The notes below the pieces were generated by a model, which saw only the letters and a list, made by a program, of their open reading frames with translations, ran no database searches and had not been told where the DNA came from. Shown here one piece after another: positions 4,682-50,471 of a stretch of 64,000 nucleotides of DNA. Each line of letters starts with the position of its first letter. Position 1 is the stretch's first letter. Both the position numbers and the translations under genes were made by a program. The stretch spans positions 145 to 64,144 of the forward strand of contig JBILXZ010000001.1 of NCBI GenBank assembly GCA_044378015.1, written 5' to 3'. Source of the DNA: Tagaea sp. Lineage in GTDB: Bacteria; Pseudomonadota; Alphaproteobacteria; CACIAM-22H2.

Positions 4682-5659
4682 TTATCCCCAGCCAAATTTC
4701 TGCCGCAACAGGCGGGCGGCCCGCGCCGTATCGTCGGGCGGGACATAGGTCCAATGCTCGAAGCGGCCTTCGAACGGGCGCGTAAAGCCTTTGGCCTGCA
4801 TGGTGGCCTGAAACGCGGCAATGCGGCCCGAACGGCCTTCAAGGGCGGCGACGAACACGGGCTTGCCGGTCGAAAGCGCTTCGCTGGTCATCGACACGGA
4901 ATCCTCGGTCACAACGATGCCGTCCGCCAATGCCAACAGCCCGAAATAGGGATTCTCGCCCTCGCCGTCCCAAGCATAGCCGCCGAGCGCGCGCACGGTC
5001 TTCACAAGCGCTTCGCGGGCCGGCGGGTCGGTACGACGCGACGGCGTCAATGCAAGGCCGCAACCGCCTGCCGCCAAACTTTCGAGGCCAGCCGCCAGAC
5101 GCGCGACGGCGCCCTCCGTCATCTGGAAGCGGCGCCAGCCGTTCGAACCGCCCAGGATCACGGCAATCAGCGGCCGCTTGAGAGCGGTCAATCGCGGCGC
5201 CCAAACTTCGGCTGCGGCGGCGAGCTTCGCCGGCGTCACATGGTGAAGCGCCATTTGCGTTTCGATGACGTTGGCCCCGACGATTTCGTCGTGCGCAGGC
5301 ACGATCACCGCATCGAGCCAAGCGACCGGGACCGCCGGACGCTGCACGTGAAGGGCAAATACCCTGCCGCCGCTGCGCCGCTTCATCGCAACGCCGATGG
5401 GCGCGCAACGCGAACCCAGCGTAATCGCCATGTCGGGCCAAGGTTCGGACAGATCGGGGCTGTCGGCGCGCAACATCGCGAGCGGATCGCCGCGCACGAG
5501 GGCCACTTCGGGGAGCCACGAATAAGGCGGGCGAAACGCCACATCCTTGAATTCGAAGGCGAGGCCCAGGGCCTCGGCAATGCCGCGGCATTGCGCTTTC
5601 ATGCCGACCTGCCCCGGGCTGATAATCCAGGCGGTTTTGGGGGCGGAGGGGGTTGTCAT
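4682..5659 (-). CDS. ELM1-like (mitochondrial fission ELM1 / DUF1022) family protein
   Basis: Size and motifs (AWIISPGQVGMKAQCRGIAEALGL...VILGGSNG...PSRRT) resemble the ELM1/GT-B-like family common in alphaproteobacteria; called from memory of the family only. Confidence 0.55.
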   Translation of the reverse strand: MTTPSAPKTAWIISPGQVGMKAQCRGIAEALGLAFEFKDVAFRPPYSWLPEVALVRGDPLAMLRADSPDLSEPWPDMAITLGSRCAPIGVAMKRRSGGRVFALHVQRPAVPVAWLDAVIVPAHDEIVGANVIETQMALHHVTPAKLAAAAEVWAPRLTALKRPLIAVILGGSNGWRRFQMTEGAVARLAAGLESLAAGGCGLALTPSRRTDPPAREALVKTVRALGGYAWDGEGENPYFGLLALADGIVVTEDSVSMTSEALSTGKPVFVAALEGRSGRIAAFQATMQAKGFTRPFEGRFEHWTYVPPDDTARAARLLRQKFGWG

Positions 5660-5778: not shown

Positions 5779-6282
5779 ATGCGCGGGCACAAGCTTGACG
5801 ACGTGGATCGCCAGATTCTCCACGATCTCCAGAACGACGGGCGAATGACCAATGTCGAGCTTGCGCGCCGGGCCGGTGTTTCGGCCCCGCCCTGCTTGCG
5901 CCGCGTGCGCGTGCTCGAGGAAGCCAATGTGATCCGCGGCTATCACGCCGACATCGACCCGCATGCGCTGGGTTTCGGGGTGGCTGTATTCGCGTTCGTC
6001 AGCCTCAAGAGCCAAGCCGATGCCGATCTGCGGGCTTTCCAGGCGATCATCGATTCCTGGCCGATGGTGCGGGAATGCCACATGCTGACCGGGGAAACCG
6101 ATTTCCTCATCAAAGTCGTAGCGCAGGATTGGGACGCGTACGAAAAATTCCTGACGACGCAGCTGACGGCAGCCCCCAATGTCAGCAACGTCAAGTCGGC
6201 GCTGACGATCCGCACGACCAAAAACCAGCCGGGCGTGCCGATCGAGGCCAAACAGCCCGACGCCAAAGCGGCGCGCAAATAG
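5779..6282 (+). CDS. Lrp/AsnC-family transcriptional regulator
   Basis: LDDVDRQILHDLQNDGRMTNVELARRAGVSAPPCLRRVRVLEE HTH plus RAM (ACT-like) C-terminal domain. Confidence 0.85.
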   Translation: MRGHKLDDVDRQILHDLQNDGRMTNVELARRAGVSAPPCLRRVRVLEEANVIRGYHADIDPHALGFGVAVFAFVSLKSQADADLRAFQAIIDSWPMVRECHMLTGETDFLIKVVAQDWDAYEKFLTTQLTAAPNVSNVKSALTIRTTKNQPGVPIEAKQPDAKAARK

Positions 6283-6650
6283 CCGTTATTCCCCGGGCTT
6301 CAGCACGCGCAGATCGCCGCTTGCCGAATCGCGTTCGACGATTTTCATATGGGCTGCCCACCGCGCGACCGCTTCGAGCGGCAGGTCGCGGCGCGCCAAC
6401 CGACGGCCCAGCGCTTGTGCGCGCGCCTCGGTCCAAGCGAAAAACGCGACGATTTCGGGTGCCGCATCGTCGAACGGTTCGGGAGCGCCATTCATTTCGA
6501 CGGAATCGGTCGAACGAAGACGCCTGCACGCAAAGGTTTGTGCCTTGGTGAGCGAGAAGCGATTTCTCTACTTCGAGTATGCCGAAGAAGCAGAACGCGA
6601 ATCAAATGTTGAATTCTACGCCGGCTCGGCGAGCGGCGGCGTCAAGCCGC

Positions 6651-8318
6651 TCATGCCAGTTTCGTCGCGTCCTTGACGATGCGCATCGCCAAAACGCCTT
6701 GGCGGCCGCGTATATCGGTCGTCTCCTCGGGAAAACCAGAAAAATCGAGGCCGCTGGCGCGCGCAGCGTCGGTCGAGACCAAAAGATCGGCACCGTATGT
6801 TTTGGTGAGCGCTTCGAGGCGACTTGCCGTATTGACCGTGTCGCCGATGGCGGTGAATTGGCGCACGTCGCCGTAGCCCATCTCGCCGACGATGGCGGGG
6901 CCCGTATGGATGCCGATGCCGATCCGCAACGGCGCGCCGAGATCGTGCGCAAGGGCAGCGTTGAGGGCGGCGAGCCGTTCGATCATGGCGCGAGCCCCGG
7001 CAAGCGCTTCGCGCGTGCCTTGCGCGGGCCCGCTTTCGACGCCGAACAGCGCGACGATGCCGTCGCCCACGAATTTGTCGATGCGCCCGCCCGCCGTTTC
7101 GATCGCAGCCCCCATTTCCGCGAAATAGCGGTTGAGCAGAAAGACCACGTCGAACGGCAACTTGTTTTCCGACAACGTCGTGAAGCCGCGCAGATCGGCG
7201 AACATCACGGCGATGGTTTTCTCGACCCCCGAATTGTCGCGCGAGCGGCGCTGGGCAACGGATGCGGAGCCGACAGCGGCGGGCAGCAGCGGCACGATCG
7301 CGACGTCGCCTTCGGCGCGCGCCTGGCATGCCAGACGCACGCTCGGCGGCGCCGCGACGCGCGCAAGCACGGCCAACTCGTCGGCGGCGGCCGGCGACAG
7401 GTTTTCGCTCCCGCGCTCGACGCGCACGCGGCAAGTCGAGCAGCGGCCCCGCCCGCCGCATACGGAAGCGTGCGCAATCCGTCCTTGGCGGCTCGCCTCG
7501 AGCAGCGTCGTGCCGCGCGCGACGGCGACCGTCGCGTCGCGCGGGTAGGCCACGACCGCCCGCCCGCCGCGATCCGCATGCCACGCGCGCACGCGCCGGG
7601 CGGCGAACACGGCGGCGATCGACAAAGCCCACAGCGCCAGCACGCCGCTCTGGATGCGCTCGAGAGTCGCGGCATCGTCGGCATTCGGCAAACGATGGCG
7701 CTCGGCAAGGCCAGCGCGCCAAGCCGGGTCGGCGAACAATGCGGCGACTTCGCGGCTGCCGGCGAGATATCCCGCCACGGCAAGGGCGCCGAGGATCGTC
7801 GCCGCCGCCAACAGCCACGGCTGCCAGCGCGCGTAGAGCGGCTTCAAGCGCAGCCAGTAATGCACGCCCGCGCAGCCGTGCAGCCAGACCAGCAGCAGGC
7901 CCGAGACGAGCAGCAGCCCGCCCGACGGGTCGATCTGGGTCGTTGCGACCGCGACCGACGCATGCGAGGGCAGCATGCCGAACAGCAACGCGCCGAAGCG
8001 CACCGGAACCACGTGACCCGCGAGGATCGGCACGACGGCCAAGCCCGCGACAAGCTGCACAGTTTCGCCGCGCGACAGGGTGGCGAGATCGCGCCGCAGA
8101 TAGACGGTCCGCAGCGACAGCCCGAAATGCGCGGCGAGCGACAAATAGAGAAGGACGCGAACCGGCGGCAGCCCCACGACCGAGAACATCGCCTGGGCAA
8201 AGGCATCGGCCGCCGCCAAAGAAACGTTCATCAGCGCGTGGTTGGCCAGATGCAGCGCGACATAGACGAACAGCGCGAGGCCGGAAGCCAGCCGCACCTG
8301 GCGCGCCGCGATCCTCAT
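6651..8318 (-). CDS. membrane-anchored 2Fe-2S ferredoxin-domain adenylate/guanylate cyclase (class III)
   Basis: C-terminal CYC domain (IAVMFADLRGFTTLSE...FVGDGIVALFG...IGIHTGPAIVGEMGYGDVRQFTAIGDTVNTASRLE); central plant-type 2Fe-2S motif (CGGRGRCSTCRV...RLACQA); N-terminal multi-TM region with paired His; ATG at 8318 overlaps the upstream stop (ATGA). The first 253 codons of the 808-aa track ORF are rejected because they overlap the plsC frame. Confidence 0.8.
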   Translation of the reverse strand: MRIAARQVRLASGLALFVYVALHLANHALMNVSLAAADAFAQAMFSVVGLPPVRVLLYLSLAAHFGLSLRTVYLRRDLATLSRGETVQLVAGLAVVPILAGHVVPVRFGALLFGMLPSHASVAVATTQIDPSGGLLLVSGLLLVWLHGCAGVHYWLRLKPLYARWQPWLLAAATILGALAVAGYLAGSREVAALFADPAWRAGLAERHRLPNADDAATLERIQSGVLALWALSIAAVFAARRVRAWHADRGGRAVVAYPRDATVAVARGTTLLEASRQGRIAHASVCGGRGRCSTCRVRVERGSENLSPAAADELAVLARVAAPPSVRLACQARAEGDVAIVPLLPAAVGSASVAQRRSRDNSGVEKTIAVMFADLRGFTTLSENKLPFDVVFLLNRYFAEMGAAIETAGGRIDKFVGDGIVALFGVESGPAQGTREALAGARAMIERLAALNAALAHDLGAPLRIGIGIHTGPAIVGEMGYGDVRQFTAIGDTVNTASRLEALTKTYGADLLVSTDAARASGLDFSGFPEETTDIRGRQGVLAMRIVKDATKLA

Positions 8319-9055
8319 CGCGCGTCGTCGGCCGAGGCGTGGCCTTCTTCGAGGCGCCTCGTGGCCGTTTCGATGCGCGTCTCGAGTTCGCGCATGAACT
8401 CTGCGCGCTTGAGGCCGGCCGGAATCGCGTCGAGCACCTCGACCGTGATGAGGCCGGGCTTCTTGGCGAACGTGCGCCTGCCCCAGAACAGGCCGGAGTT
8501 GAGCGCGACCGGCACGCACGGCATGTCGAGCTTGCTGTAGAGCGCCATGACGCCGGGATGGTAGGGCCAGTCTGCGGCGTCGCTGCGCACCGGCGTGCGC
8601 GTCCCTTGCGGAAAGATCACGATCTGGCGGCCTTCCGCGATCGCTTCTTGCGCCATCGTCAGCATGCGCTTCAAGGCCGCTCCGCCGCCTTTGCGGTCGA
8701 CCGGGATCATTTTCTGCTTTTGCGCATGCCATCCGTAGAGCGGGATCGACAGAAGCTCCTTCTTCATCACGTAGGTCGGATCGCCGCACAGCGCGTAGAA
8801 GATCAGCGTGTCCCACGCCGACTGGTGCTTGCACGCGACAAGCGCCGGGCCTTCGAGCAGGTCGACCCGGCCGACGAGGCGGTGTTCGAGCCTGCAGATG
8901 TGCTTGAGACCCCACACGACGGTCTTGGCCCAGACCCGCGCGATGAAATGCACGCCGCGTCGATCCATGAAATGGCAGGGCAACGAAGCGATCAGCAGCG
9001 CCGTCGTGGCGCCGAAAAACCAGACATTGAACAGAAACGACCGCAGCTGGATCAT
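8315..9055 (-). CDS. lysophospholipid (1-acyl-sn-glycerol-3-phosphate) acyltransferase, PlsC family
   Basis: Acyltransferase H-X4-D box (ACKHQSAWDTLIF) and FPQGTR motif; ATG at 9055 overlaps the upstream stop (ATGA). Confidence 0.8.
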   Translation of the reverse strand: MIQLRSFLFNVWFFGATTALLIASLPCHFMDRRGVHFIARVWAKTVVWGLKHICRLEHRLVGRVDLLEGPALVACKHQSAWDTLIFYALCGDPTYVMKKELLSIPLYGWHAQKQKMIPVDRKGGGAALKRMLTMAQEAIAEGRQIVIFPQGTRTPVRSDAADWPYHPGVMALYSKLDMPCVPVALNSGLFWGRRTFAKKPGLITVEVLDAIPAGLKRAEFMRELETRIETATRRLEEGHASADDAR

Positions 9056-9648
9056 GGGGGGACATCCGCAAAAGCAAGATAGGGGCGCAGCAATGCGCCG
9101 ACGTATTTGTGGTACTCGGCCTGCAGCAGCGCGTAGGTTCCCGGCCAGCGCCACCATTCGTCGATATGGAAGTTTTCGGGGTAGACGGGCTGGGCGATCA
9201 GATCGATGTCCGGCATCGCGCGGCGGAACTCGAGCGTCGCGCGCCGCAGATGGTAGTTGGCCGTCACGAGCCGCAGCGAGGCGATCTTCTCGCGCGCGAC
9301 GAAGGCGGCGGCCTCGCGCGCATTGCCTTGGGTCGAATCCGCGTCGTAGCCGAGTTCGACGCAGCATTCGAGAGCGCCCGGCCCCTGGCGCGCCACGCGC
9401 AGCAGCTCCTGCAGCTCGACATTGCGGTTGACGCCAGAGACCAGCAGCTTTTTGGCCTTGCCCTCGGCCATCAGACGCAGGCCCTCGCGCAGGCGCAGCT
9501 GGCCGCCCGTCAGCACCACGATCGCGTCGGTCGCGCGCGCATCGACCGGGCCCTCGCGCGGGATCGCGGCGGCGAACCACACGAGCCCGCCCAAATAGAT
9601 CAAGCCCAACGCGGCCGCCGCAGCGCCCAAGCGCAGGAGCGTCGCCAT
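9052..9648 (-). CDS. DUF218 (YdcF/ElyC/SanA-family) envelope protein
   Basis: N-terminal TM, then DAIVVLTGG...KLLVSGV...GYDADSTQGNAREAAAF, characteristic of DUF218. Confidence 0.7.
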   Translation of the reverse strand: MATLLRLGAAAAALGLIYLGGLVWFAAAIPREGPVDARATDAIVVLTGGQLRLREGLRLMAEGKAKKLLVSGVNRNVELQELLRVARQGPGALECCVELGYDADSTQGNAREAAAFVAREKIASLRLVTANYHLRRATLEFRRAMPDIDLIAQPVYPENFHIDEWWRWPGTYALLQAEYHKYVGALLRPYLAFADVPP

Positions 9649-9654
9649 TTCCCG

Positions 9655-10197
9655 TCAACCCAGCAGCGCGGCCACGGCCGCGCCGAGATCTTCGTGCACG
9701 CCGACAGGCAGCACGGCATCGGGCAGACCCGCAGCCAAGGTTTTGGCGCCGTGGCCGGTGCGCACGAGATGGCGCGGGCAGCCGATCGCCGCGGCAGCTT
9801 GCAGATCGCGCAGACTGTCGCCGACGAAGGGTGTGGCGGCCGCGTCGGCCGCGAACATGGCGATGGCCTCGATCAGCATGCCGGGGGCCGGCTTGCGGCG
9901 CGTCGAAACCGGGCCGGGCGCGTCGGGGCAATGGAAGATCGCGTCGAGTTTCGCGCCCTCGCGCGCCAGCCCGTCGCGCAGGGCCTCGTGGATGCGCGCC
10001 AGCATCGCTTCGTCGAAGATGCCGCGCCCGATCGGCGACTGGTTCGTGCACACGGCCACGGCATATCCCGCGCGATTGAGGCGCGCGACGGCCGCCGCCG
10101 CTCCGGGCAGGAACACAAGCTCGCCCGGATGCTTCACATAGTCGGCACGATCGACGTTCAGCACGCCGTCGCGATCGAGGAGGACGAGTCGGGCCAT
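9655..10197 (-). CDS. gmhB: D-glycero-beta-D-manno-heptose-1,7-bisphosphate 7-phosphatase (HAD-IIIA)
   Basis: LDRDGVLN, CTNQSPIGRG, RRKPAPGM, GDSLRDLQAA and VRTG motifs align with E. coli GmhB. Confidence 0.85.
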   Translation of the reverse strand: MARLVLLDRDGVLNVDRADYVKHPGELVFLPGAAAAVARLNRAGYAVAVCTNQSPIGRGIFDEAMLARIHEALRDGLAREGAKLDAIFHCPDAPGPVSTRRKPAPGMLIEAIAMFAADAAATPFVGDSLRDLQAAAAIGCPRHLVRTGHGAKTLAAGLPDAVLPVGVHEDLGAAVAALLG

Positions 10198-10209
10198 GTC
10201 CGTCCGAGC

Positions 10210-11079
10210 CTACAGGATACGCGCGAGATTTCGCATCACCGTGCCGTAGGCAGCGGCGGCCGCGACTGCGGTTGCGGCGAACGGCACGCTTGCGAGCAGC
10301 AGCCAATCGCTCCACCCCAACGCCGGCAGCGGAAAGGCGAGCGCGGCGCTGCCGCTTGCCACCGCCGAGGCGGCGACCAACACGAGCGCGGCCCCCGCAG
10401 CCCCGAGGCCGGCACCTGCAAAAGCCAGCCGCATCGCCGCGCGCGCGAACTGCACGGCGATGTAGGCGTCGGGCGCGCCGACCAGATGCAGAAGATCGAC
10501 CGCCTCGCGATGCACGGCCAGACCCGCGCGCGTTGCAAACGCGACGCAGCTTGCAGCCGCCAGCGCCACCGCCGACAGCACGATCGCCGCCACGAGCCCC
10601 GCCGCGCGCGCCAGCGCCAAGAAACCGCCGAGCCAGCGCCCATGGTCGTCGATCGCCGCATCCGGCACGGCCGCCTCCAAACGCCGGCCCAACGCCGCGA
10701 GATTGGGCGTGGCGCCCGCGACAAGCCGCACGTCGATCAGCACCGGGATCGGCAGATCCTGGAGATTGCCGGCGCCAAGCCACGGGCCCAAAAGCGCCTC
10801 GGCCGCCGCACGCGAAATCTGCGTCGCCGCCGCGACCGCCGGGTCGGCGCGCAGCAGCGCCAAAGCGGCGGCCGGATCGGCGCCGGCAGGCAGCTCGACC
10901 GTGAGCGTGCCCGCGAAATTCGCCTGCCAGCGCTTGGCCGTGCCCGACAAAGCGAGGGCGAGACCGAGCGCGAGCGTGGCGAGGAACGCAAGAGCCGCGA
11001 CAACGGCCGCAATCCAGCGCCGTTCGCGGTCGCGTTCCAACGCAAGCTCGCTGCCGCGCCCGAAACCGAAGCCCGCCAT
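10210..11079 (-). CDS. ftsX: cell-division ABC transporter permease FtsX
   Basis: Directly downstream of ftsE; N-terminal TM, periplasmic region and C-terminal TM bundle typical of FtsX; start MAGFGFGRG chosen inside the longer track ORF. Confidence 0.75.
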   Translation of the reverse strand: MAGFGFGRGSELALERDRERRWIAAVVAALAFLATLALGLALALSGTAKRWQANFAGTLTVELPAGADPAAALALLRADPAVAAATQISRAAAEALLGPWLGAGNLQDLPIPVLIDVRLVAGATPNLAALGRRLEAAVPDAAIDDHGRWLGGFLALARAAGLVAAIVLSAVALAAASCVAFATRAGLAVHREAVDLLHLVGAPDAYIAVQFARAAMRLAFAGAGLGAAGAALVLVAASAVASGSAALAFPLPALGWSDWLLLASVPFAATAVAAAAAYGTVMRNLARIL

Positions 11080-11084
11080 CGTCG

Positions 11085-11753
11085 CTACGCCGCCTTCGCG
11101 AGTTGCACGAGGGCTCCGGCTTCCAGGCGCAGTTCGGGATGGCGCGAGTCGCGCACCAACTGCATATTGTGCGTCGCGACCACGATCGTCGTGCCGAGGC
11201 GGTTGAGCTCTTCGAACAGCCGCATCAAGCGCAGCGCGATGCGGTCGTCGACGTTGCCGGTGGGCTCGTCCGCGATCAGAAGCTTGGGCCGCCCGATCAC
11301 CGCGCGCGCGATCGCCACGCGCTGCTTTTGCCCGCCCGACAAAGTCGGCGGCAGCGCGCCGAGATGGTCGCCCAACCCGACCCACACCAGCAACTCGGCC
11401 GCGTGCTCGCGCAGCTGCGCCTCGTCTGCCCCCTGCACGCGCAGAGGCAAGGCCACGTTGTCGATGACCGAAAGATGATCGAGCAGGCGGAAATCCTGGA
11501 ATACCGTGCCGATGCGTCGGCGCAAGCCCGGCAGATCGCGCCGCGCCATGCGGGCGACGTCGCGCCCGAACATATGGACGGTGCCGCGGCTCGGCAGGCG
11601 TGCGAGATAAAGCAGCGAAAGCAGCGACGATTTGCCCGCCCCCGACGCGCCGGTCAGAAAATGGAAACTGCCGGGCTGCAGCGCGAAGCTCACGTCGCGC
11701 AGCACTTCGGGCCCCAGGCCGTAACGCAAGCCCACTTGTTGGAAGACGATCAT
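11085..11753 (-). CDS. ftsE: cell-division ATP-binding protein FtsE
   Basis: Walker A GASGAGKSS, signature LSGGQKQRVAIARA, Walker B LLIADEPTGNVD; start taken at MIVFQQVGLRY (the track Met at 11774 is 7 codons upstream). Confidence 0.9.
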   Translation of the reverse strand: MIVFQQVGLRYGLGPEVLRDVSFALQPGSFHFLTGASGAGKSSLLSLLYLARLPSRGTVHMFGRDVARMARRDLPGLRRRIGTVFQDFRLLDHLSVIDNVALPLRVQGADEAQLREHAAELLVWVGLGDHLGALPPTLSGGQKQRVAIARAVIGRPKLLIADEPTGNVDDRIALRLMRLFEELNRLGTTIVVATHNMQLVRDSRHPELRLEAGALVQLAKAA

Positions 11754-11832
11754 TGGCAGGGCGGATGCTGGCACGCGCGGGCAAGACGGCGCAAGCTTGC
11801 CCCCGTGCCGTCTAAGGCCCTATAAAAGCCGT

Positions 11833-12702
11833 ATGATTCTGGCGTGCCCAACTTGCTCTACGCGCTTTCGCGTGCCCGATGGTGCCCTCGGCTCTGCCGG
11901 GCGCACCGTAAGGTGCGGCAATTGCGGGCATAGCTGGCACCAAAAGCCGCGCCAAGCGATCCTCGAAATCAATCCGCACTTCCCCAAGACGGCAAAACGG
12001 ATGCGCCAGAGCTTGGGCGACGACGAACAGCTCGACATGCCGGATGCGCCGGGCCGCAGCTATTCGCCTCCCCCGCCGCCGCCTATTCCGAAGGCGGCCC
12101 CGCCGCCGCCGCCGCCGATCAAAGAGTCCGAAGAGCCCGTCCCGGTTTCCCTGAGCTTCCAACGCACGATGGAAGCGGTGCGCGAGACCATCGCCACCGA
12201 AGCCGACCCGATGCCGGCCGCCCTCAAGCCAGCGGACGAGGCGACGGCGCCCGCGCCGAAGCGCCGCTCGATCGCGGCAGCGATCGGCTGGCTTCTGTTC
12301 GCGTTGACGACCTCGGTGCTCGGGGCCGGGATTTTCGCGCAGACCGAAATCATGGCGCGCTTCCCCGAGACGCGGGCGATCTACCAAGCGCTGCAGTTTC
12401 CCGTCCCTTTGCCGGGCGAAGGGCTCGAAGTCGTGTCGCCCGTGCCGACGCGCGGCACGCTCGACGGCGCGCCGGTCCTTCTCGTCACGGGCCGCGTGCG
12501 AAACGCAACCGACCTGCCGCGAAACGTGCCGCAGATGCGCGCCGTCCTGCGCGACGCAAACGGCACCGAGGTCGCAAGCTGGGAATTCGCCGCCGAGATC
12601 GCGCGCCTCGAGCCGGGCGAGGAGACGGCGTTCGCGACCCACCTCCCCAGCCCGCCCGCCGACGCCAACCAGCTTCAGATCGTGTTCTTGGACAAATACT
12701 GA
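11833..12702 (+). CDS. MJ0042-type zinc-ribbon / DUF3426 membrane protein with a Pro-rich linker
   Basis: MILACPTCSTRFRVPDG...RCGNCGHSW zinc ribbon; poly-Pro tract (PPPPPIPKAAPPPPPPI); TM; C-terminal DUF3426-like domain; divergent from ftsEX as in many alphaproteobacteria. Confidence 0.7.
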   Translation: MILACPTCSTRFRVPDGALGSAGRTVRCGNCGHSWHQKPRQAILEINPHFPKTAKRMRQSLGDDEQLDMPDAPGRSYSPPPPPPIPKAAPPPPPPIKESEEPVPVSLSFQRTMEAVRETIATEADPMPAALKPADEATAPAPKRRSIAAAIGWLLFALTTSVLGAGIFAQTEIMARFPETRAIYQALQFPVPLPGEGLEVVSPVPTRGTLDGAPVLLVTGRVRNATDLPRNVPQMRAVLRDANGTEVASWEFAAEIARLEPGEETAFATHLPSPPADANQLQIVFLDKY

Positions 12703-50358: not shown

Positions 50359-50471
50359 GCTCAAAAGGCAGCGCTTGGACGAGCGGATCGTCTTGGAAAA
50401 TTCGGGGCGACTGCCGACGGCCCCGCGTGGGGGTCTTCATACGCGCGCGCGCGCGCGAACGCAAGTCGCAC

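Follow-up and report, generated by a model that had tools for sequence, protein, structure and literature searches.

Six minus-strand genes ending in a cyclase gene

A 64,000-nucleotide stretch of DNA from Tagaea sp. (assembly GCA_044378015.1, contig JBILXZ010000001.1, positions 145 to 64,144; hereafter the window) was analysed at a cluster that opens with the cell-division gene ftsE and closes with a gene for a predicted membrane-anchored adenylate cyclase. The list of open reading frames (ORFs) and direct reading of the sequence showed six consecutive minus-strand ORFs running from 11753 down to 6651. The features of the cluster, in window coordinates, are as follows.

11085-11753, minus strand: ftsE, the first gene, encoding the cell-division ABC ATPase (TIGR02673, PF00005)
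10210-11079, minus strand: ftsX-like permease gene (PF02687 and TIGR00439, weak and colinear)
9655-10197, minus strand: gene for a HAD-IIIA phosphatase, GmhB-like (NF006506)
9052-9648, minus strand: gene for a DUF218 (YdcF/ElyC/SanA-type) protein (PF02698)
8315-9055, minus strand: gene for a lysophospholipid (PlsC-family) acyltransferase (PF01553)
6651-8318, minus strand: gene for a putative CyaC-type adenylate cyclase of 555 amino acids, the last of the cluster (PF00111 and PF00211)
11754-11832, no strand: short divergent intergenic region between ftsE and a Zn-ribbon/DUF3426 gene, presumed to hold the operon promoter

The first three junctions are short gaps. The TAG stop codon of ftsE (11087-11085) is followed after 5 nucleotides by the ftsX ATG at 11079, the TAG of ftsX (10212-10210) after 12 nucleotides by the phosphatase ATG at 10197, and the TGA of the phosphatase gene (9657-9655) after 6 nucleotides by the DUF218 ATG at 9648. 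At the last two junctions the genes overlap: the DUF218 stop and the acyltransferase start share the ATGA at 9055-9052, and the acyltransferase stop and the cyclase start share the ATGA at 8318-8315. The stop codon of the cyclase gene is the TGA at 6653-6651. Upstream, a divergent Zn_ribbon_4/DUF3426 gene (11833-12702, plus strand) borders the cluster, and downstream a convergent Lrp/AsnC regulator gene (5779-6282, plus strand) does so. The original prediction had described six minus-strand genes with gaps of 5 to 12 nucleotides and two ATGA overlaps, and every coordinate and junction matched the sequence. Spacing this tight is, by itself, nothing unusual for operons of high-GC genomes; the arrangement stands above chance because the acyltransferase/cyclase junction is conserved, at -4 or +1 nucleotide, in nine related loci.

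The identities of the first five gene products were assessed with curated models. FtsE passed the equivalog model TIGR02673 (272.5 bits, cut-off 264.85) and also matched PF00005. The FtsX-like protein scored below the cut-offs of PF02687 (18.5 bits, cut-off 25.5) and TIGR00439 (43.8 bits, cut-off 255), the latter match being colinear and spanning model positions 26-289 of 292; its gene lies directly after ftsE in the window and, always, in the related loci. The phosphatase narrowly passed the GmhB model NF006506 (181.4 bits, cut-off 178) but failed the GmhB model TIGR00213 (87.9 bits, cut-off 149.6). By sequence, the third gene product is certainly a HAD-IIIA phosphatase; its GmhB label is marginally supported and the substrate assignment is putative. 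The fourth product matched PF02698 with 50.8 bits. The acyltransferase passed PF01553 (70 bits) but failed the PlsC equivalog TIGR00530 (66.9 bits, cut-off 102.95) and NF011593 (21.7 bits, cut-off 501), and fell below the cut-off of every specific NCBIfam PlsC or OlsA model, so that the cautious label for it is lysophospholipid acyltransferase family protein. The gene identities given in the original prediction, including the membrane, 2Fe-2S and class III cyclase architecture of the last product, were borne out overall, except that the gmhB label is marginal and the plsC label generic by these models.

Domain architecture and predicted activity of the cyclase

Three regions were recognised in the cyclase.

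7569-8318, minus strand: residues 1-250, helical membrane anchor with a predicted diheme cytochrome b fold (alignments, AlphaFold, Foldseek)
7314-7541, minus strand: residues 260-335, 2Fe-2S ferredoxin domain (PF00111 Fer2, 40.6 bits)
6798-7220, minus strand: residues 367-507, class III catalytic domain (PF00211, 66.6 bits)

A database search gave over 7,000 matching proteins at E <= 1e-10, and the best 120 of these matches all had the same length and the same Fer2 and cyclase domains. The approximately 250 N-terminal residues had no Pfam match, and a plain sequence search of residues 1-250 against the PDB gave zero matches even at E = 10. The AlphaFold model of this region was all-helical, with a mean predicted local distance difference test score of 95.5. 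The top three PDB matches of the model in Foldseek were 9lay_C, 2bs4_C, and 1e7p_C (TM-score 0.52-0.56, probability 0.99-1.0). These are diheme cytochrome b subunits (FrdC/SdhC), from the fumarate reductase of Wolinella succinogenes (2bs4 and 1e7p, chain C) and the succinate dehydrogenase of Chloroflexus aurantiacus (9lay, chain C), and the window anchor resembles them in fold over approximately 226 aligned columns, although the sequence identity is only approximately 15%. Two further differences were observed: FrdC/SdhC dock to flavoprotein and iron-sulfur subunits, whereas the window anchor is fused to a ferredoxin domain and a cyclase domain, and the window anchor has an extra C-terminal helix. 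Five histidines of the anchor (H23, H27, H64, H102, and H147) were invariant in 81 aligned homologues and are spread over four different helices, one or two on each. This four-helix invariant set is predicted to be able to ligate two hemes.

In the ferredoxin domain, the cluster ligands C287, C293, C296, and C331 were invariant in an alignment of 21 homologues, within the motif CGGRGRCSTC...LAC. In the catalytic domain, the metal-binding D375 and D419, the substrate pair K415 and T489, and N496 and R500 were invariant in 21 homologues. The best solved relatives of this domain by sequence were the class III cyclases 2w01 and 1wc0. At the positions of Lys and Thr in the window cyclase, 2w01 has Glu and Gly; it is presumably Cya2, a guanylate cyclase of Synechocystis. 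Because Lys and Thr form the substrate pair of class IIIb adenylate cyclases and 2w01 carries Glu and Gly, the product of the window cyclase is predicted to be cyclic AMP (cAMP) rather than cyclic GMP (cGMP). Of the two signals originally proposed, cAMP thus fits the substrate residues K415 and T489, whereas cGMP is not indicated.

An architecture of this kind has been described before. In the ferredoxin-containing class IIIb cyclases ("cluster 1" of Beltz et al., exemplified by Rhodopseudomonas palustris Q132R4), the ferredoxin domain lies between the anchor and the catalytic domain, and the anchors of this family, with six transmembrane helices and four spaced histidines, resemble the cytochrome b of fumarate reductase and succinate dehydrogenase (PMC4821796). 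According to the passages of PMC10463352 that cite Wissig et al. (2019), CyaC of Sinorhizobium meliloti carries two heme B groups and is redox-sensitive via ubiquinone, being activated once quinones have oxidised it. The window cyclase shares with CyaC and the family of PMC4821796 the order of a six-helix, cytochrome b-like anchor with intramembrane histidines, a 2Fe-2S ferredoxin domain, and a class IIIb domain. By its architecture and predicted fold, it is a member of the described CyaC-type family and hence of a known kind. Because of this architecture, the conserved ligand residues, the fold, and the literature, a CyaC-like mechanism is expected by analogy, in which the redox state of heme B, set by the quinone pool, would control cAMP synthesis. 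The genetic setting differs. The S. meliloti gene is preceded by cycR, which encodes a TetR-type regulator, and the protein signals via the transcription factors Clr and CycR (PMC10463352), whereas the window gene is the probably coupled tail of a predicted ftsEX operon and has no adjacent regulator.

Conservation and origin of the linkage

A synteny scan was performed with one genome per species, using a cyclase alignment as the query; the best 80 loci were kept, and the other five operon proteins were then located. The full six-gene array was found in two of these 80 loci, L001 (cyclase identity 84%) and L002 (a metagenome-assembled genome of Tagaea sp., 67%), whereas in the other 78 the cyclase (40-51% identical) stood elsewhere, in unrelated contexts. 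Further linked loci were obtained from contigs of close homologues: L081, L082/L083, L084/L085 (64-65%), L090, and L086, the last being a Tagaea-like contig with a cyclase that is linked at an identity of only 52%. Altogether, the same six genes occurred in the same order in all nine related loci (L001, L002, L081-L086, and L090), at cyclase identities of 52-84%, and the acyltransferase/cyclase junction was in every one either a 4-nucleotide overlap (ATGA or GTGA) or a spacing of +1 nucleotide. The adjacency, which had been open to dismissal as a peculiarity of one strain, is not strain-specific and was kept in every examined member of the clade.

The gene 3' of the cyclase varied among the linked loci. 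In the window and in L001, a convergent Lrp regulator gene lies beyond the cyclase, with an intact PAS_5 gene before it in L001. Convergent small ORFs follow the cyclase in L081 and L090, an unrelated same-strand ORF in the near-identical pair L082/L083 (compared for L083), a CBS/BON gene in L084, and a class II ribonucleotide reductase gene in L086. A conserved gene following the cyclase was accordingly rejected, as the downstream neighbours differ from locus to locus.

A neighbour-joining tree built from 84 cyclases placed the nine linked sequences that it contained in one exclusive clade, which points to a single acquisition. The GC content at third codon positions (GC3) was 0.83 for the cyclase gene and 0.83-0.86 for its neighbours. 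Compared with L001, the ratio of nonsynonymous to synonymous substitution rates (dN/dS) was 0.18 for the cyclase and 0.04-0.13 for the other five genes; the value for the cyclase indicates purifying selection. A recent horizontal transfer of the cyclase was considered and rejected, since its GC3 is in line with the neighbouring genes and the linked cyclases fall into one clade. On these sequence measures, the cyclase appears to have joined this operon long ago, in a single acquisition, and to be under purifying selection.

The reverse survey started from contigs of acyltransferase homologues at 52-60% identity. Five more distant alphaproteobacterial loci proved to have the core operon but no cyclase: L087, L088, L089, and L092, at acyltransferase identities of 53-60%, and the Kiloniellales locus L091, which has the same core except that the HAD phosphatase gene is missing. 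These clusters resemble that of the window in their genes, order, and tight spacing, and usually in the divergent Zn-ribbon/DUF3426 neighbour; they differ in what comes after the acyltransferase. In L087 and L091, a class II ribonucleotide reductase gene follows directly. In L088 and L089, a 2OG-Fe(II) oxygenase gene (2OG-FeII_Oxy_5) stands before the ribonucleotide reductase gene, and in L092 an opposite-strand chemoreceptor gene does so. In L086, the cyclase lies between the acyltransferase and the same ribonucleotide reductase. Because the L086 cyclase and the genes of sister lineages occupy the same place, the gap between acyltransferase and reductase is a slot filled differently by lineage.

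Among the loci compared, the cyclase occurred in this operon only in the Tagaea-like clade. The survey therefore gave a divided answer to the linkage originally proposed: it is real and conserved, but it is confined to one clade, with 78 of 80 family members elsewhere and five core operons lacking the cyclase. The linkage of the ftsEX operon to the cyclase is a lineage-specific, previously undescribed gene order.

The two surveys also yielded observations on neighbouring genes. In most of the related loci, whether or not they have the cyclase, the Zn_ribbon_4/DUF3426 gene stands head-to-head with ftsE; it seems to be a conserved, divergently oriented partner of the ftsEX operon in Alphaproteobacteria. 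In approximately 20 of the 78 unlinked loci (L003-L080), a divergent ABC-2 transporter cluster lies within approximately 2-4 kb upstream of the cyclase and is its commonest neighbour (for example, L067 8806-9756, L057 8169-8903, and L006 6169-8121). Its genes encode an ABC ATPase, a permease-looking protein of approximately 244 amino acids, and a protein of approximately 650 amino acids, only the ATPase being recognised by a similarity match. A protein of approximately 215 amino acids with TPR-like repeats is encoded near the cyclase, mostly downstream, in approximately 14 of the 78. A universal neighbour of the wider cyclase family, such as the TetR gene of S. meliloti, was sought among the 78 unlinked loci, and none was found.

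Expression, function, and features beyond the cluster

Scans for sigma-70 promoters and intrinsic terminators covered positions 6000-12200. No sigma-70-like promoter consensus was found there, the region 11754-11832 included, and terminator-like hairpins were no commoner than in shuffled sequence (6 found, 6.3 expected). At the cyclase stop, folding of 106 nucleotides gave z = -1.04; the hairpin had no U-tract, and no terminator was recognisable. Direct reading revealed no Shine-Dalgarno-like sequence within 15 nucleotides of the window cyclase ATG. Because there is no noncoding room for a promoter and the scans gave neither a promoter-like site nor an excess of terminators, the six genes are likely co-transcribed from the ftsE promoter, judging from spacing, conservation, and scans. 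Likewise, because its start overlaps the acyltransferase stop and no Shine-Dalgarno sequence lies near its ATG, translation of the cyclase is most likely coupled to that of the acyltransferase, possibly by reinitiation. An operon-like organisation with coupling-type overlaps had been expected, and the common strand, the minimal spacing, and an order conserved across genomes all agree with it. Regarding internal promoters or terminators that might separate the cyclase from ftsEX, the consensus scans detected none in excess, but they were limited to sigma-70-type promoter sites.

The explanation that we favour, with a probability of roughly 70%, is a single insertion of a cyclase gene into an older operon, the cyclase being a CyaC-like redox sensor expressed at a housekeeping level. 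The ancestral state would have been the widely conserved alphaproteobacterial operon of ftsE, ftsX, and the genes for the HAD-IIIA phosphatase, the DUF218 protein, and the PlsC-family acyltransferase. In the common ancestor of Tagaea-related Rhodospirillales, a CyaC-type cyclase gene would have been inserted once, between the acyltransferase and ribonucleotide reductase genes, and retained at that site ever since. It would be transcribed from the ftsE promoter, and its translation would be coupled to that of the acyltransferase. In the protein, two b-type hemes in the anchor would trade electrons with the quinone pool, and the redox state would be passed on by the 2Fe-2S domain to the catalytic domain, a class IIIb homodimer that would form cAMP. 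The linkage would, most plausibly, give the sensor a steady, housekeeping-level, membrane-coupled expression.

Several points weigh against this explanation. The promoter scan recognises only a sigma-70-type consensus and is blind to non-consensus alphaproteobacterial promoters. The Foldseek E-values for the anchor are weak (0.1-0.5), although the TM-scores exceed 0.5 and the top three matches are all of one protein type. The likeness to S. meliloti CyaC (SMc01818) was set by architecture, ligands, fold, and the published description, and the heme B groups, the Fe-S cluster, and the quinone-redox response of the window cyclase are predictions by analogy. Finally, selection for synthesis coupled to that of the envelope proteins could explain why a -4/+1 junction has been kept over approximately 50% protein divergence, and the functional link would then be real.

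This last point leads to the alternative of a dedicated coupling, in which redox-dependent cAMP, or the cyclase protein itself, would regulate FtsEX in division, lipid synthesis by the acyltransferase, or envelope functions of the DUF218 protein, and coupled translation would ensure stoichiometric membrane co-assembly. In its favour, all nine related loci hold the junction to -4 or +1 nucleotide, at cyclase identities of 52-84%, while the genes downstream change from locus to locus; two of the products, the FtsX-like protein and the cyclase, are proteins of the membrane, and the remaining ones come from envelope-associated families; and the cyclase is under purifying selection. However, 78 of the 80 family members stand in unrelated contexts, and sister lineages hold the core operon with an empty slot, a 2OG-Fe(II) oxygenase gene, or a chemoreceptor gene. 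The cluster and the window showed no gene for a cyclic-nucleotide-binding or CRP-like protein; the CRP-like search in the window was a tblastn of low sensitivity with an E. coli CRP query. No second cyclase was found in the window either. Furthermore, S. meliloti CyaC acts via Clr and CycR, not via envelope proteins (PMC10463352), and our literature search found no paper joining ftsEX and a CyaC-type cyclase. Because what follows the acyltransferase varies by lineage, adjacency is weak evidence for cAMP control of division or the envelope. We consider a dedicated coupling unlikely. The idea that a cAMP signal is tied to envelope and division functions, with which the analysis had begun, was not borne out, being weakened by the variable slot and the unrelated contexts of most family members. 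Somewhat more doubtful still is the proposal that, in the Tagaea-related clade, the sensed respiratory redox state is wired into division or envelope lipid synthesis, through local cAMP or through co-translational assembly with the acyltransferase, the DUF218 protein, or FtsEX, and that the junction marks selection for stoichiometric co-synthesis.

Adjacency without co-expression was also weighed. The cyclase could have its own promoter in the 3' part of the acyltransferase gene, with the overlap reflecting compact packing. The cyclase being a later addition to an older operon would suit this idea, as would the blindness of the scan to non-consensus promoters, but the scan detected nothing promoter-like, each linked locus has the cyclase start overlapping or abutting the stop of the gene before it, and the lack of a recognisable Shine-Dalgarno sequence within 15 nucleotides of the window ATG fits reinitiation; we regard it as improbable. 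It is very improbable that cGMP or some other product is formed by the catalytic domain, or that this domain is inactive and the protein is a redox enzyme rather than a signal generator. The solved catalytic domain nearest in sequence, 2w01, is presumably a guanylate cyclase, but it has Glu and Gly at the substrate positions, and in the window family the two metal-binding Asp residues, the Asn and Arg of the transition state, and the Lys/Thr pair showed no variation among 21 homologues.

All components of the cluster come from described families, and knowledge of those families is unchanged by the favoured single insertion. Its interest is evolutionary: a redox-sensing cyclase would have been captured once at the tail of a housekeeping division/envelope operon, and a coupling-type junction kept through substantial divergence. 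If the coupling is functional, it would provide a concrete route from the respiratory chain's redox state to cell division or membrane biogenesis in Alphaproteobacteria, and would place the CyaC family, with downstream targets otherwise known in S. meliloti alone, in a second physiological setting. If it is not, the locus would neatly illustrate the gathering of unrelated genes at the 3' ends of conserved operons.

One further feature lies just downstream of the cyclase.

6286-6495, minus strand: 69-amino-acid remnant of a PAS_5 gene, outside the conserved unit

In the closest relative, L001, the PAS_5 gene is intact (188 amino acids, 11783-12349, plus strand), and approximately 320 bp are lacking in the window. 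It looks as though the PAS core was removed by an in-frame deletion between two short repeats encoding "LRV". The cyclase stop lies within another ATGA (6651-6654), which opens a 12-codon ORF (6616-6654, minus strand) with the sequence MSGLTPPLAEPA; this ORF, which is not conserved in L001, is probably due to chance. Two genes beyond the cyclase, the minus-strand gene at 4682-5659 gave a full-length match to PF06258 (Mito_fiss_Elm1, 312.7 bits) and encodes a bacterial homologue of the ELM1 family of mitochondrial fission proteins; L001 has this neighbour too. The sole Rfam match above the gathering score in the window was a chrB-b cis-regulatory RNA at 50368-50425 on the minus strand (52.6 bits).

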